From the IMG/VR virus record IMGVR_UViG_2548876702_000015, positions 1 to 26,172 of that record: a stretch of DNA of 26,172 nt. The stretch is one strand, 5' to 3'. Source of the stretch: a virus. Lineage: Duplodnaviria; Heunggongvirae; Uroviricota; Caudoviricetes. The stretch's first letter is position 1. Each line of letters begins with the position of its first letter. A program made the translations under genes and the position numbers. This document shows, piece by piece, positions 13,596-17,890 of this stretch. The notes beneath the pieces are model-generated. The model was not told the DNA's origin and searched no databases. It saw only the letters and a list, made by a program, of their open reading frames with translations.

Positions 13596-13640
13596 TAAAT
13601 ATGCTGGGCCCCCCCCCGGCATTTACTCACGCCCCAATTT
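13596..13640. other. Candidate cos (cohesive-end) region just downstream of the portal gene, containing a 9-C homopolymer
   Basis: In P2-family genomes cos lies next to the 3' end of Q. The reverse complement here reads GGGGCGTGAGTAAATGCCGGGGGGGGGCCCAGCAT, which resembles the GC-rich P2/186 cohesive ends (GGCG(A/T)GGCGGGGAAAGCA(C/T), as recalled) only loosely. Confidence 0.3.
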
Positions 13641-15377
13641 CCATACTGAATTATACGATAAAATACTTAGTTCAGCAGCTCTTGACCTCATATGATCGGG
13701 CGTCCATTCTCCTTGATATTTATTTTCAAATTCATCAATAAAAATTTTAACTAGCGCATATTGTGATTGTTTATAAATTTCAAGCTTATCCACAACAGAC
13801 TTATTTCCAGCTTTTTCATTTAATTCTTTTGAAAGTGGTAATAAATTTCCTATCATGCTATATACTTCAGAATCCCCCACACTCTGAGGCTGAATATGCT
13901 CTAATGTTAATGAATCAGGCATATACTCCCCCGTTTTCATGTGATGTAACTCAAGTCTATTAAAAATGTACTGAATCAACCTTTTATTTTTCAACTCTTG
14001 ATTTGAAAATTTAAGCATAACAAACTTTTCAACAAACATATTAATGTCTGGTTTTCTCTTCACCAACATTTCAAGCAAAGACTTTATTACTTGTCTATTA
14101 CTAGCTTTAGTAGAACCTTCATCCACTAAAGCCCTAGCAGCTTTAGCATACGCACTTTCAATACCTGATGGTCGCAATGAACAAATAGCATTAAACATAA
14201 AATGAAAGCGTTCAATTGACAGCACTGCATTATTCATATCAACAAGTTTTAGCGTTCCTCTTGCTCTTGCCTTAAATAAAGATAACAAAAATGGTTTATT
14301 CTGAGATATGTTAAACAGCCTTAATGCCTGCAAACCTCGATAAACTGGTTTCATTTCCAGTTCAGGAAAATCCTGTTCTGTAGGCGATGATATTTTCACA
14401 TATATCTCGGCATCTGAAAGTAGCTCATCAATGAACGCTGAAGCATCAATGTCGCCTTTTTTCCACTTATCCAGAAAAGCTTTATAAAGAGTGTCACTAC
14501 TTACATAAGAATATTTTGACACCCACCAATGACGGATAAATGTCTCGATAGAACCGACACCATTACGACTAGCAATTATTTGCCTAATTTTATTCCATTT
14601 AGTTTTTGCATCATCATCAGGATGTGTGCCATTCAGTTTCTTAAATAATTTGTTTTTTATAAGATCTACATAACTTAAGTTTAATCCCCTAGCATTCAGA
14701 GTTTCAAAGATTGTATAAGCTTCATCTTCATCATTAACTGTAATATAAATCACTTTCAGATACCGTAGAACTTGATCCCGCACAGCCTTCAACGCTTCCA
14801 AGTAGATAAATTTCTCTCTATCTACTCCTAATGTCTGGCAAAGATTATCTTCTGAAAGATACTCAGTTAAATCATTATATGAAGATTGCAAGTTTCTTTC
14901 TTCAAGGGACTCCGGTCCTTCATTTCTCTTATCAATATGCTGAATGTTGTTTTGAAAGTATGGCTTAGGAGTTTCATTAACTAATTTAAAAAAAGGTCTG
15001 CCATCGTCATCCATACCAGATATATAATTATTATATATTGATTGAGCTACAGCCAACTCATTTATCAACTTAAATTTATCACATAATGCTGATAACAATA
15101 TAGTAAGAGTCGTAAGACGTTGTTGACCATCTACAATCATCAGCTCAGAGCTAGTTTCCTGCCCGACCAAAACGAGAGCACCGATGAAATACTCATCATA
15201 TTGATACTGCCCATCCTCCTGGTAATGAATATTGGAAACTATATCATGCCAAAGTTCACTTACTTGTTCCTTCCCCCAAGAATATTCTCTTTGGAATCTA
15301 GGGACTATATATTTTTTATTTACAGATAACACGTTTGTTAAGGTTCGAGCATTTGCTTGCAGTTCCACTGAGGCCAC
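13623..15377 (-). CDS. DUF262 (ParB-like, DGQQR motif) + DUF1524 (His-Me finger) nuclease, GmrSD-like candidate type IV restriction / anti-phage protein
   Basis: 584 aa. N-terminal motifs ..YIVPRFQREYSW.. and IVDGQQRLTTL, and FETLNARG, are DUF262 hallmarks. C-terminal LEHIQPQS ... NLLPLSKELNEKAGNK fits the DUF1524 pattern. AT-rich relative to flanking phage genes. Start is GTG at 15377. Confidence 0.7.
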   Translation of the reverse strand: MASVELQANARTLTNVLSVNKKYIVPRFQREYSWGKEQVSELWHDIVSNIHYQEDGQYQYDEYFIGALVLVGQETSSELMIVDGQQRLTTLTILLSALCDKFKLINELAVAQSIYNNYISGMDDDGRPFFKLVNETPKPYFQNNIQHIDKRNEGPESLEERNLQSSYNDLTEYLSEDNLCQTLGVDREKFIYLEALKAVRDQVLRYLKVIYITVNDEDEAYTIFETLNARGLNLSYVDLIKNKLFKKLNGTHPDDDAKTKWNKIRQIIASRNGVGSIETFIRHWWVSKYSYVSSDTLYKAFLDKWKKGDIDASAFIDELLSDAEIYVKISSPTEQDFPELEMKPVYRGLQALRLFNISQNKPFLLSLFKARARGTLKLVDMNNAVLSIERFHFMFNAICSLRPSGIESAYAKAARALVDEGSTKASNRQVIKSLLEMLVKRKPDINMFVEKFVMLKFSNQELKNKRLIQYIFNRLELHHMKTGEYMPDSLTLEHIQPQSVGDSEVYSMIGNLLPLSKELNEKAGNKSVVDKLEIYKQSQYALVKIFIDEFENKYQGEWTPDHMRSRAAELSILSYNSVWKLGRE

Positions 15378-15509
15378 CTACTTTAGTTGTTTGTATTACA
15401 CAGTTTTATAGCATTGGAGTTTGAATGACAACCCGTTGCGCGCGCTCGTATCCCCGCCACGCCTGCCCGCTTTATGTAGTGGTTTTCATGCAGATGCATG
15501 CTCTACGCA

Positions 15510-15540
15510 AAAGCCCGCCAGTTCTGGCGGGCTTTTGCAA
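15510..15540 (-). terminator. Rho-independent terminator (bidirectional hairpin) after the three-gene operon
   Basis: GCCCGCC-agttct-GGCGGGC stem-loop flanked by A-run and T-run (caaaaGCCCGCCagttctGGCGGGCttttgc), 60-90 nt downstream of the stop of the 15600..16016 gene. Confidence 0.6.
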
Positions 15541-15599
15541 AAACGATCCTCAAACGATCATGCGATTTCATGCAGCATAGTCATGCAAAGTAGAAACTG

Positions 15600-16016
15600 C
15601 TATTTAACGTCCGGCGTTTGCGCTGTGGGGGATACTTTTCCATCTAGCGTATTTACAATTGAGAGGGGGTAAATTCCCATTTCAATTCCACAGATCACGT
15701 CGTAACGAGCCTGCGCTTTCTCTCGCATTTCTGGAGAAACAGGGGACGATGGTGCATTTAAAACTGCTTCGGCTTGCTTCTTCAGAGCCTTCAACCGCCT
15801 TTTCAGTTTGATTTCTTGCGGATCAACAGCATAAATCGTCCATGCAAAAGTAAAAACTTCGCTTAAAAGAATTGACACCATCGGTATTGAAGCAATGTAA
15901 AGGTCTTTCCATGTTGGATCTGTAATGAAGCTAGCCAGCTTTATTAGGAAAAGGCCTACACCGCCGCCACCTGTAACACCGACTGCTTTACCGCTTGTTT
16001 TCTTTTGTTCAGGCAT
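15600..16016 (-). CDS. Small membrane protein (2 predicted TM helices), third gene of the uncharacterised three-gene operon
   Basis: ATG at 16016-16014 with a strong AGGAAGGAG SD, 2 nt after the stop of the preceding gene; 138 aa. Hydrophobic segments GVTGGGGVGLFLIKLASFI and IPMVSILLSEVFTFAWTIYAV, with a Lys/Arg-rich helix between. Confidence 0.5.
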   Translation of the reverse strand: MPEQKKTSGKAVGVTGGGGVGLFLIKLASFITDPTWKDLYIASIPMVSILLSEVFTFAWTIYAVDPQEIKLKRRLKALKKQAEAVLNAPSSPVSPEMREKAQARYDVICGIEMGIYPLSIVNTLDGKVSPTAQTPDVK

Positions 16017-16272
16017 GAGAGGCTGACTCCTTCCTCTCACGCTTATTTTTCTCTGCTATATCATCGATGAGCTTTATTAACTCATCATCATTGTTTATAT
16101 AAATATTTGTTTTATAGACATTTTTGTTTGCATCAGTATAAGTGATAGAAACTTTTGTTTCGACAATAACTCGATCGAGCAGGCTACGTATAGCCACTCT
16201 AGCACCTATAAATATAGCTGGAGCTGCAACAAGCAGCCCCAACCATCCTAACACACTAATATCTATAGACAT
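16009..16272 (-). CDS. Small single-pass membrane protein, second gene of the three-gene operon
   Basis: 87 aa, ATG at 16272-16270, 2 nt after the stop of the 304-aa gene. N-terminal TM helix (ISVLGWLGLLVAAPAIFIGARVAI) then a charged soluble tail. Confidence 0.5.
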   Translation of the reverse strand: MSIDISVLGWLGLLVAAPAIFIGARVAIRSLLDRVIVETKVSITYTDANKNVYKTNIYINNDDELIKLIDDIAEKNKRERKESASHA

Positions 16273-16274
16273 TT

Positions 16275-17189
16275 TTAATCCGCATCAGGTTTTATTTTTC
16301 TATCTTTGGCGGCAAAGTGTCGACCCACTTTGATGATCGATAACTTTTCGTCTACCTGGCCACCGGAATCTTTCACAATTTTCTTCATCTTCACAGCAAA
16401 CAATTCGCCAAAAATTTTGGGGGCGTCTGGTCCAGTAACAAGCTTGATGAACTCATTATCTTCCATTCTGACATTGCGCTTTTCACCGCCAAACTCAACA
16501 CGCCAGCCACTTTTTTTGTCAGTATGCGCCGAAACGAATGTCACGGTTGTTTCAAATTCGTCAACTTCTTCTTTGGTTTCAAAGAGAACTTTTGGCGACT
16601 TAAACTCTTCTGCCTCATCTTTATGAATTTTGAGGATTTCTTTCTTAGAGGTGCGCGATTTTTTTACCACAAAATTGTCGATACCATCTTGTAACAGAGG
16701 CTGTCTGACAAACGCGTCAACAGCCTTACGAATCTCTGGGGCATTAACGATTTTTTCGACATCTTCAGAGCAAACAATCTCTTCACCATCGACTTTCAGC
16801 TTAACTTTGTCACTACCGTTAGCTTTCTCGACTATGTCGATCTTACGCCCGTTAAGCTTCTTGAGAACCTCTAAAACTGTAGCACCGCCAACGGCTAAAG
16901 GAATGGCTGACAAACCTAAAATTTGTACAACATCTTTAGCATTAGCTAGATGTTGTACAACCTCAATATCAAACCCAAAGGAACCGGCTATCAATTCAGC
17001 GTCAACGTTAACTTCAATGTCTCGCCCTCCGTTTACAATCTCATTTGCAGAGTAGATAGCCTCACCTAGCCCCTGCAAACTTTTCGCAAACGAAAGAATA
17101 TCCATCTTATGATCGTCGAGAGCTTTGCCTTGATACACAATACTTACTGATTGAGTCTTATCCGCCATTGAGTTCAGATCCGTTGCCAA
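16275..17189 (-). CDS. Hypothetical soluble protein (~297-304 aa), first gene of the three-gene operon; no family recognised
   Basis: Long ORF with coding-like composition, Lys/Glu/Asp-rich C-terminal half. TTG at 17189 or ATG at 17168 are possible starts. AT-rich accessory context. Confidence 0.55.
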   Translation of the reverse strand: MATDLNSMADKTQSVSIVYQGKALDDHKMDILSFAKSLQGLGEAIYSANEIVNGGRDIEVNVDAELIAGSFGFDIEVVQHLANAKDVVQILGLSAIPLAVGGATVLEVLKKLNGRKIDIVEKANGSDKVKLKVDGEEIVCSEDVEKIVNAPEIRKAVDAFVRQPLLQDGIDNFVVKKSRTSKKEILKIHKDEAEEFKSPKVLFETKEEVDEFETTVTFVSAHTDKKSGWRVEFGGEKRNVRMEDNEFIKLVTGPDAPKIFGELFAVKMKKIVKDSGGQVDEKLSIIKVGRHFAAKDRKIKPDAD

Positions 17190-17304
17190 TAAAATGCGCG
17201 CGATTTTACGCCCATCACTATGTTTAATCTATCTATTAATCATTTATCCCTCTAGCTGTCTACTATCGGACTCAAAAAACATGACTCATTACAAACGAAA
17301 CCTA

Positions 17305-17538
17305 TCAATGCAGCCAGCAGTCGTCTTCCCACACCTTCTGCATAATTTTCAGCACTTGTTTTCTTTCTTCGTCCAGTTGCAGTCCGGTCAGTTCCACACC
17401 GTTAGAGCTACCTTTGCGGATACGAATTACCGTTTTGGGATACAGGGGGCGCAGATTGCGGTAAAGCTCGGATTCAAGGGCATCCAGGGTAGACTGGCTA
17501 ATCTTCTGCTCTTTATCGATCATTATTTCAATGCGCAT
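17305..17538 (-). CDS. DinI-family protein (SOS-induced; Tum/DinI-like)
   Basis: 77 aa from ATG 17538-17536 with a GAGGTG SD. MRIEIMIDKEQ..LDALESELYRNLRPLYPKTVIRIRKGSSNGVELTGL..KQVLKIMQKVWEDDCW parallels E. coli DinI (MRIEVTIAK...) as recalled. Downstream of a LexA box. Confidence 0.6.
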   Translation of the reverse strand: MRIEIMIDKEQKISQSTLDALESELYRNLRPLYPKTVIRIRKGSSNGVELTGLQLDEERKQVLKIMQKVWEDDCWLH

Positions 17539-17548
17539 AAAAGTCACC

Positions 17549-17737
17549 TCAGCTGATGACATCCATTGAGCGGTTGTATTCGTGGGTTCTGATTTTTGCC
17601 ATGAGTTCATCTGTCAGTTCAGAAACCCACTGCAAAGCCAGCCCCTTCTCTTCATCACTACACTCACTAGCCGCTACAAGCTTAAGAAAAAAATCAATGC
17701 GCTGGAGCTTCAAAGACTCCAAAAAATAGTCCTGCAT
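17549..17737 (-). CDS. Small hypothetical protein (62 aa), first gene of the LexA-controlled operon
   Basis: ATG at 17737-17735 with a GGAGGA SD. Its stop overlaps the SD of the DinI-like gene (translational coupling). Confidence 0.45.
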   Translation of the reverse strand: MQDYFLESLKLQRIDFFLKLVAASECSDEEKGLALQWVSELTDELMAKIRTHEYNRSMDVIS

Positions 17738-17780
17738 CTTTCCTCCTATGACACCACAAGCAATACTGTATGCATAACCA

Positions 17781-17796
17781 CTGTTTATATTTACAG
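17781..17796 (-). promoter_or_regulatory. LexA (SOS) box overlapping the promoter of the small-protein/DinI-like operon
   Basis: CTGT-TTATATTT-ACAG (cCACTGTttatatttACAGTAta) fits the CTGT-N8-ACAG consensus with an AT-rich centre. On the transcribed strand a TATACT -10 overlaps the box and a TTTACA -35-like hexamer lies upstream. About 40 nt upstream of the ATG at 17737. Confidence 0.6.
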
Positions 17797-17890
17797 TATA
17801 TAATAATCTTACTGATGTAAAACGTTTTTTTACGTTCATCAGCCTGATATGCCTGGTATTATTAAGAGCACGAATTGTTAACCCGCGTAA

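Follow-up and report, generated by a model that had tools for sequence, protein, structure and literature searches.

A mobile three-gene cassette beside cos in a P2-like prophage encodes a predicted gp29-family protein and is a candidate anti-phage module

The window analysed here (the whole stretch, 26,172 nucleotides (nt), positions 1 to 26,172 of IMG/VR record IMGVR_UViG_2548876702_000015, Caudoviricetes) carries on its minus strand a trio of genes, g1, g2 and g3, within a self-contained accessory ('moron') cassette that occupies, in a P2-like prophage, the cos-proximal cargo slot on the gene-A side. Our best reading, from sequence comparison, is that the trio represents a three-gene proteobacterial variant of the MichelleMyBell (MMB) gp29/gp30 system and of PDC-S42, a defence candidate listed by PADLOC. 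Given the gp29-family membership of g1, the PADLOC listing, the mobility of the cassette, the hotspot and cI-adjacent positions, and the purifying selection on the genes, we infer, with confidence a little on the favourable side, that the prophage would express the trio as an anti-phage module acting by abortive infection or by exclusion.

The three open reading frames (ORFs) called in the original prediction are confirmed by the ORF list, head to tail and all on the minus strand within 15600-17189 (aa, amino acids; TM, transmembrane):

g1, 16275-17168 (minus strand): 297 aa, predicted LAPAL / PHROG 3243 / PDC-S42 / MMB gp29-family protein
g2, 16009-16272 (minus strand): 87 aa, one TM helix at the N-terminal end (aa 5-23), then a charged C-terminal domain
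g3, 15600-16016 (minus strand): 138 aa, a GGGG motif, hydrophobic segments at aa 13-31 (weak) and 39-64 (strong), and a basic helical C-terminal tail
Shine-Dalgarno (SD) sequence of g3, AAGGAG, 16032-16027 (minus strand): inside the 3' end of the g2 coding sequence, read from the sequence

The g1 ORF can be opened at a TTG (16275-17189, 304 aa, the length first given), but its true start is most likely the ATG at 17168, which yields 297 aa, since all close homologues (the alignment rows minus the two most distant), the Prokaryotic Genome Annotation Pipeline (PGAP)/RefSeq annotation and the table of Rousset et al. begin at MADKTQ. The 2-nt gaps described between the genes are borne out at the g1/g2 junction, where TAA AA ATG leaves 2 nt between the g1 stop and the g2 ATG, but not at the g2/g3 junction, where there is an 8-nt overlap of the g3 ATG with the g2 stop (ATGCCTGA, 16016-16009). 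This overlap, of 8-35 nt, is kept in each lineage examined, and the SD of g3 does lie within the end of g2 as described; with the two taken together, the case for translational coupling stands and is, if anything, strengthened. GC content is 0.39-0.45 across the trio region, while the flanking phage backbone has 0.52-0.61, in agreement with the AT-richness reported before. Orthologues of g1, g2 and g3 are each present in several genera, and all three ORFs are real genes under purifying selection, with ratios of nonsynonymous to synonymous substitution rates (dN/dS) of 0.056, 0.146 and 0.077, respectively, each resting on a single pair, the closest diverged copy (locus L059, whose g1 is 94% aa-identical), farther pairs being saturated or the orthologue not found.

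The membrane content first proposed holds for the two small proteins: hydropathy gives a single clear TM helix in g2 (Kyte-Doolittle, KD, peak 2.15) and two hydrophobic segments in g3, agreeing with the Phobius calls of Rousset et al. The AlphaFold2 (AF2) model of g3 is all-helical and of low confidence (predicted local distance difference test, pLDDT, 64), and was used for helical content only. For g1, however, the label 'soluble' is only provisional, because residues 80-101 form a conserved Gly/Ala-rich, moderately hydrophobic stretch. Across the family the hydrophobic peak falls at positions 70-125 in 91% of 146 representatives (for the MMB clade the figure is 85%, for close homologues 100%), and the most hydrophobic window lies at aligned positions ~82-92 in 85-100% of members; AF2 shows no TM helix at this segment.

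The trio travels as part of a discrete unit:

Mobile cassette, 15591-17306 (minus strand): 1.7 kb, AT-rich, the three genes and their own upstream non-coding region
Upstream non-coding region, 17169-17306 (minus strand): 138 nt, AT-rich, cassette-specific, moving with the cassette and not with the backbone

On the portal side, 15502-15590 alone matches ~760 E. coli genomes and backbone homology ends at ~15590; on the other side it restarts exactly at 17307, at the stop codon of a DinI-like gene, in ~1,125 of 5,426 genomes. The mobile unit is therefore 15591-17306. The segment 15500-17300 is complete in only 7 of the 5,426 complete E. coli genomes, with one further partial copy, so that the cassette is found in 7 of the ~1,125 backbone-carrying genomes and is absent from more than 99% of the P2-like prophages sharing this backbone. 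The flanks (the DinI-like gene and gene A on one side, cos and the portal gene on the other) confirm the location first given, between portal/cos and gene A. Both the position and the variability between otherwise near-identical prophages are those of P2 gpA-gpQ hotspot cargo.

Profile searches place g1 in a known family, contrary to the original prediction. It matches NCBIfam NF053583 (2e-56, 191.6 bits where the cut-off is 60, positions 2-290 of 292), PHROG 3243, whose function is unknown (1.6e-59, positions 4-290 of 293), and the PADLOC PDC-S42 model PDLC05015 (7.8e-44, positions 3-293 of 302), all at full length, and by these profiles g1 is a predicted member of a LAPAL / PHROG 3243 / PDC-S42 family. 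The family is large and widespread: a search with a profile of g1 homologues retrieved 3,660 clusters at 50% identity (E <=1e-3), 2,255 of them at E <=1e-10, from Gamma-, Beta- and Alphaproteobacteria, Actinobacteria, Nitrospirae, Planctomycetes, Bacillota and Patescibacteria, and the best 150 of the 3,660 clusters are nearly all full-length matches of about 250-350 aa. There is no Pfam model for the family, and the only resemblance there is a weak N-terminal one to DUF7946, in 12 of 37 family members (best E 1.4e-5). NCBIfam calls products of NF053583 'LAPAL motif-containing putative phage structural protein', a label also applied to RefSeq WP_000764102. This name, now spreading through RefSeq, is probably a misnomer, because members lie in defence hotspots, downstream of cI, beside integrases and on megaplasmids, and because MMB gp29 is defensive.

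The AF2 model of g1 (pLDDT 81; predicted template modelling score, pTM, 0.62) suggests an N-terminal alpha/beta module followed by a C-terminal barrel resembling the oligonucleotide/oligosaccharide-binding (OB) fold at about aa 198-285. Foldseek of this model against the Protein Data Bank (PDB) returned nothing below 1e-3 and no whole-chain match, and a sequence profile search of the PDB found no solved structure in the family, MS2 coat protein at E 0.026 being at chance level. Matches in BFVD are uncharacterised phage proteins only, among them an MMB-like protein of phage Pipsqueaks. Neither fold nor profile searches revealed a recognisable enzyme fold in g1, and the invariant or near-invariant columns of the broad family (G62, S63, F64, P157, W222, D237, F240 and V281) do not suggest a catalytic site. 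As a side observation, the large protein of pFR87, listed as 'HP + 4TMs' from the P4 hotspot in Table S2B of Rousset et al., where it was tested and no defence was seen, weakly resembles the N-terminal module of the g1 family over its own N-terminal ~100 residues (aa 19-114; NF053583 E 0.0021). The pFR87 protein, DUF7946 and the g1 family may share an N-terminal domain found in proteins paired with membrane partners.

The link to MMB emerged from the sole match among sequenced phage records, a Vibrio Vinavirales virus in which the depositor's gene note reads 'MMB_gp29_gp30__gp29'. In the mycobacteriophage MMB, gp29 has 310 aa; the next gene downstream overlaps it and encodes gp30, a 67-aa protein that has two hydrophobic segments. 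MMB gp29 matches the same three profiles as g1, NF053583 over its full length (2.5e-53), PHROG 3243 (7.3e-81) and PDC-S42 (1.6e-16), and hhalign aligns the g1 family with the gp29 family along 267 collinear columns at a probability of 96.2% (E 2.2e-9); pairwise BLASTP of the two proteins is weak and collinear. On the strength of the three common profiles and the full-length hhalign match, we assign g1 to the gp29 family, an assignment drawn from sequence profiles. Of the two components that define MMB_gp29_gp30, the trio thus contains a predicted gp29-family large protein and lacks a gp30-family partner; its resemblance to the MMB layout, a coupled small TM gene downstream of a large gene, is one of analogy only. 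A gp29-like gene in Mycolicibacterium retains a 67-aa gp30-like partner. Prophage defence by MMB gp29/gp30 was reportedly described by Dedrick et al. in 2017 and is said to bear the DefenseFinder name 'MMB_gp29_gp30'. According to passages in later papers, the MMB prophage lowers plating of phage Tweety by 4-5 logs (PMC8549241), the defence is abortive-infection-like in that adsorption and injection go ahead (PMC6426606), and the system pairs a toxic gp29 with a membrane protein, gp30, its mechanism being described as unknown (PMC11856565).

The trio itself is inherited as a unit with one branch of this family. All 26 loci with close g1 homologues have the three-gene layout, comprising the large protein, an 81-89-aa 1-TM protein and a 135-220-aa protein with two hydrophobic segments, and among the ORFs beside g1 homologues, g2-like genes occur in 33 loci and g3-like genes in 31. 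Identities to the orthologues in Klebsiella, Proteus and Mu-like prophages are 32-38% for g2 and 36-43% for g3. The trio is a mobile accessory cassette in many unrelated elements, and its settings include the following:

Klebsiella prophage: flanked by an Imm_superinfect gene and by SSB/primase
Proteus lambdoid prophages: just downstream of a cI-like S24 repressor gene
Siphovirus tail module (locus L008): inside the structural gene cluster
Mu-like head module (locus L108): between a gpS-like gene and the protease gene
Vibrio Vinavirales virus: adjoining the integrase gene
Pseudomonas megaplasmids, ~400 kb: near IS26 and IS6100

The megaplasmid form is found in 29 Pseudomonas plasmids of PLSDB, beside IS26, IS6100 and aph(3')-Ia, with a g1 identity of only 27%; on the P. 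aeruginosa megaplasmid pBM413 (locus L112, 4980-6556) it encodes proteins of 308 aa, 84 aa with one TM segment and 139 aa, with a 35-nt overlap. A stand-alone relative of 307 aa lies directly downstream of CI in enterobacterial lambdoid prophages (L084, 5389-6894; also L083, L085, L086, L093, L106 and L107). The L084 protein is the best match to PDC-S42 (4.8e-86) and has no membrane partner. Directly downstream of CI is the position that rexAB holds in lambda.

The trio had already been catalogued: it is 'System #37' in Table S5B of Rousset et al. 2022 (Cell Host Microbe; PMC9122126), assigned to the P2 gpA-gpQ hotspot, with no name, no Pfam domain and the Phobius note '2 TM in protein 2, 1 TM in protein 3'. 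The System #37 proteins are identical to those of the trio (MADKTQ..., 297 aa; MPEQKK..., 138 aa; MSIDIS..., 87 aa), and the RefSeq accessions in the same listing (WP_000764102, WP_001115044 and WP_000020716) recur in Table S5A. With 104 occurrences in the 18,150 hotspot loci of that survey, besides the seven E. coli genomes above, the trio does recur as a unit at the same position in P2-like prophages. Its candidacy for defence or exclusion is upheld by the gp29 homology, the PDC-S42 match and the mobile cassette, but it cannot be called undescribed given System #37 and the existing family models; the trio is neither unrecognised nor a categorically new system. The P2 gpA-gpQ slot is a documented hotspot enriched for defence (PMC9122126), and six of eight randomly chosen P4 hotspot loci of unknown function protected in a 2026 survey of P2/P4 hotspots, which does not mention the trio (PMC13586616). 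Full-text literature searches on the g1 family models and the trio accessions returned no match, and the link of System #37, PDC-S42 and MMB gp29/gp30, along with the modular nature of the lineage-specific membrane partners, appears to be unreported in the literature searched.

Several observations weigh against reading the trio as an MMB-like anti-phage module. (i) No convincing promoter was found: the minus strand of 17169-17306 has zero sigma-70-like matches at >=9/12, the top match upstream of g1 in a relaxed scan being 8/12 (TAGATT-17-TAAAAT, 17231-17203). (ii) The hydrophobic segment of the g1 family is moderate in most homologues (median KD 1.05-1.56). (iii) In the PHROG search g2 and g3 show no detectable homology to MMB gp30 (phrog_12868), g2 matching weakly to phrog_36230 only and g3 to none, and an alignment of g2 orthologues with gp30 has no conserved columns; such short TM proteins, like the membrane proteins of phage AC1 considered below, lie beyond the reach of the homology methods used. 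(iv) Most distant g1 relatives stand alone, a TM ORF lying <=400 nt downstream in only 21 of 78, and none of those 21 ORFs is g2- or g3-like. Membrane proteins are thus no family-wide requirement, and since gp30 also has no detectable relation to g2 and g3, the membrane partners are lineage-specific additions to a conserved core protein. (v) The phenotype of MMB gp29/gp30 reaches us second-hand, through the three papers cited above (PMC6426606, PMC8549241 and PMC11856565). (vi) System #37 appears in neither the validated (Table S2A) nor the tested-negative (Table S2B) list of Rousset et al. (PMC9122126).

In the mechanism we propose, g1, with no recognisable enzyme fold, would be the subunit that senses, that is toxic, or both. 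The OB-fold-like barrel at its C-terminal end would bind a protein or nucleic acid derived from the phage, while its Gly/Ala-rich hydrophobic segment would contact the membrane or g2/g3. Translational coupling would supply g2 and g3 in fixed stoichiometry, and these would either restrain g1 or themselves be a membrane effector of a holin-like kind, so that activation would collapse membrane energetics and stop phage production. A broader idea, which we hold tentatively and regard as somewhat doubtful, is that gp29/LAPAL/PDC-S42 proteins form an uncharacterised class of non-enzymatic OB-fold sensor-effectors that act alone or gate interchangeable, lineage-specific membrane partners; these partners may be gp30 in actinophages and g2 with g3 in proteobacterial phages and megaplasmids. 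Were this class to be real, the trio would offer a tractable entry to a first mechanism for MMB gp29/gp30 and PDC-S42.

Four other explanations have to be weighed against the anti-phage module. The one that survives best, although we think it unlikely, is a toxin-antitoxin (TA)-like addiction module or other lysogenic-conversion module with no anti-phage role, in which, as one possibility, a toxic g1 would be held by g2/g3 and stabilise the prophage or plasmid or, as another, the genes would serve a membrane-stress or fitness function. MMB gp29 is reported to be toxic, the trio occurs on Pseudomonas megaplasmids, where addiction modules are common, and the genes of the P2 hotspot are not all defensive, its cargo also including partition systems and cdt toxins (PMC9122126). 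However, the MMB homologue has a demonstrated defence phenotype, the hotspot is defence-enriched and PADLOC lists the g1 family as a defence candidate; moreover, TA and abortive-infection functions can coexist.

A slightly less probable explanation again is superinfection exclusion at the envelope, whereby g2/g3 and a peripheral g1 would block phage DNA entry without killing the cell, as do SieB, Sie and Charlie gp32. Small prophage inner-membrane proteins are the classic determinants of such exclusion, and g2 and g3 are membrane proteins; a SieB-family gene occupies the neighbouring Q-side slot in strain PEC148, and the Klebsiella trio has an Imm_superinfect gene nearby. Nevertheless, MMB, the sole characterised relative, is described as permitting adsorption and DNA injection, most g1-family members have no membrane partner, and exclusion systems do not typically include a conserved protein of cytoplasmic type, 297 aa long, that has an OB-like domain.

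We consider it very unlikely that the trio is an accessory lysis-timing module for the prophage's own lytic cycle, with g3/g2 as a holin/antiholin-like pair and g1 as their regulator. The architecture is holin-like, g3 having two hydrophobic segments and a highly basic tail and g2 one TM segment and a charged tail, yet searches of Pfam, PHROGs and NCBIfam gave no match to a holin or lysis family, P2-like phages already have a complete lysis cassette elsewhere, and only about 0.6% of otherwise similar prophages carry the trio, which also occurs on non-phage megaplasmids. A role for g1 as a structural protein of the phage, as its NCBIfam label and the two copies inside structural clusters (L008 tail, L108 head) might imply, is hardly credible, given that in those clusters the trio is an insertion between conserved structural genes and brings two membrane proteins, that its other settings are the non-essential P2 hotspot, sites downstream of cI or beside integrases, and megaplasmids, that over 99% of P2-like prophages with the same backbone do without it, that MMB gp29 is a defence gene, and that g1 has no structural-protein fold match and does not combine a conserved place among virion genes with a match to virion proteins by fold or family.

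The surroundings of the cassette contain two further elements of the cos-proximal region:

Hairpin GCAAAAGCCCGCCAGAACTGGCGGGCUUUUGC, 15538-15507 (minus strand): 14-bp G+C-rich stem ~60 nt downstream of g3, in the backbone
cos-like 19-mer GGCGTGGCGGGGATACGAG, 15463-15445 (minus strand): between the trio and the next gene, at the end of the A-side cargo slot

The hairpin had been described as a strong terminator. Its stem and folding are indeed strong (z = -4.4 for 15490-15610, with 0 of 200 shuffles folding as well), but only four U follow the stem and a terminator scan did not pick it up. We count it as cos-proximal backbone rather than cassette because 15502-15590 matches the ~760 E. coli genomes noted above, and it is likely the terminator used by the trio operon; the same element is present in the pFR109 insert of Rousset et al. 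PGAP also annotates a pseudogene ('hypothetical protein, internal stop') at 15383-15571 (L113, 4384-4572), spanning cos and this hairpin, a call that is probably spurious since it falls on conserved non-coding backbone (15502-15590).

The 19-mer differs by four mismatches from what we take to be the 186 cos and by five from the presumed P2 cos. It is also present in a P2-hotspot clone from Rousset et al. As cos lies between the trio and the gene at 13623-15377, two cargo slots flank it, one on the gene-A side and one on the portal side. Strain PEC148 has this trio together with a SieB-family gene in the portal-side slot, from which we conclude that the trio is an independent module. In the window, the portal-side cargo (13623-15377, minus strand) encodes a GmrSD-type DUF262 + DUF1524 protein that matches the PADLOC HEC-06 (3.8e-90) and BREX-associated Orf5 models; RefSeq names the product 'DUF262 domain-containing protein' only, and by these domains it is likely a type IV restriction-like defence gene. 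On the gene-A side, the program ORFs for the DinI-like gene (17305-17610, minus strand, 101 aa) and a phrog_698 gene (17549-17839, minus strand, 96 aa) overlap; with the later RefSeq starts (77 and 62 aa, respectively) the overlap is gone, and both genes belong to the backbone and not to the cargo.

Comparison with established systems narrows the placement of the trio. A scan of PADLOC-DB v2 (E <=0.01) returned PDC-S42 for g1 only, with no match for g2 or g3. The original prediction of no match to RexAB, Kiwa or Zorya agrees with the PADLOC and Pfam scans: Kiwa and Zorya were rejected on the lack of any component hidden Markov model match in PADLOC-DB v2, and RexAB on the lack of the RexA domain DUF4747 in g1 (Pfam, E <=0.1) and of a PADLOC match. 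At the level of organisation, lambda RexAB, Sbash gp30-gp31 and CarolAnn gp43-gp44 resemble the trio as we propose it, each pairing a cytoplasmic prophage sensor with a membrane partner in abortive infection, and several trio relatives hold the cI-adjacent position of RexAB; the RexB-like partner has four TM segments, whereas the trio has a 1-TM and a 2-TM protein.

Two systems of the same hotspot are closer in layout. Rst_2TM_1TM_TIR, from the P2-like phage AC1, likewise combines a larger cytoplasmic protein with a 2-TM and a 1-TM protein, but its large protein is a TIR enzyme and its gene order differs; identity with the trio was rejected because g1 contains neither a TIR domain nor any other enzymatic one and the AC1 proteins (Table S2A) are unrelated in size and sequence. 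Rst_3HP (hp+hp+hp, from E. coli E1114, protecting against P1) also comprises three genes with no clear domain prediction, but its proteins are larger, at roughly 330, 350 and 225 aa, and carry no TM note; it was rejected on the size and sequence of its Table S2A proteins and on the lack of a PADLOC match.

The remaining comparisons are those on which our placement of the trio turns. System #37 is the same entity at the same locus, with no difference. PDC-S42 in PADLOC-DB v2 is a single-gene phage defence candidate whose model PDLC05015 g1 matches at full length; it is one gene by definition and a candidate only, fitting the stand-alone lambdoid-prophage members best (L084), whereas the trio adds two dedicated membrane partners. 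MMB gp29/gp30 and the trio have large proteins of similar size (310 and 297 aa), a small membrane-protein gene directly downstream and translationally coupled, and carriage by temperate phages in non-essential regions. They differ in that gp29 and g1 are only about 20-29% identical in pairwise comparison, that MMB has one 67-aa 2-TM partner in place of the 87-aa 1-TM and 138-aa 2-TM proteins of the trio, and that the hosts are actinobacterial rather than Enterobacterales; of the two, the defence phenotype belongs to the MMB system only. If the trio is defensive, it would join System #37, PDC-S42 and MMB gp29/gp30, the sole experimentally validated member, into one widespread family with modular partners, and would provide an E. 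coli model for working out their mechanism.

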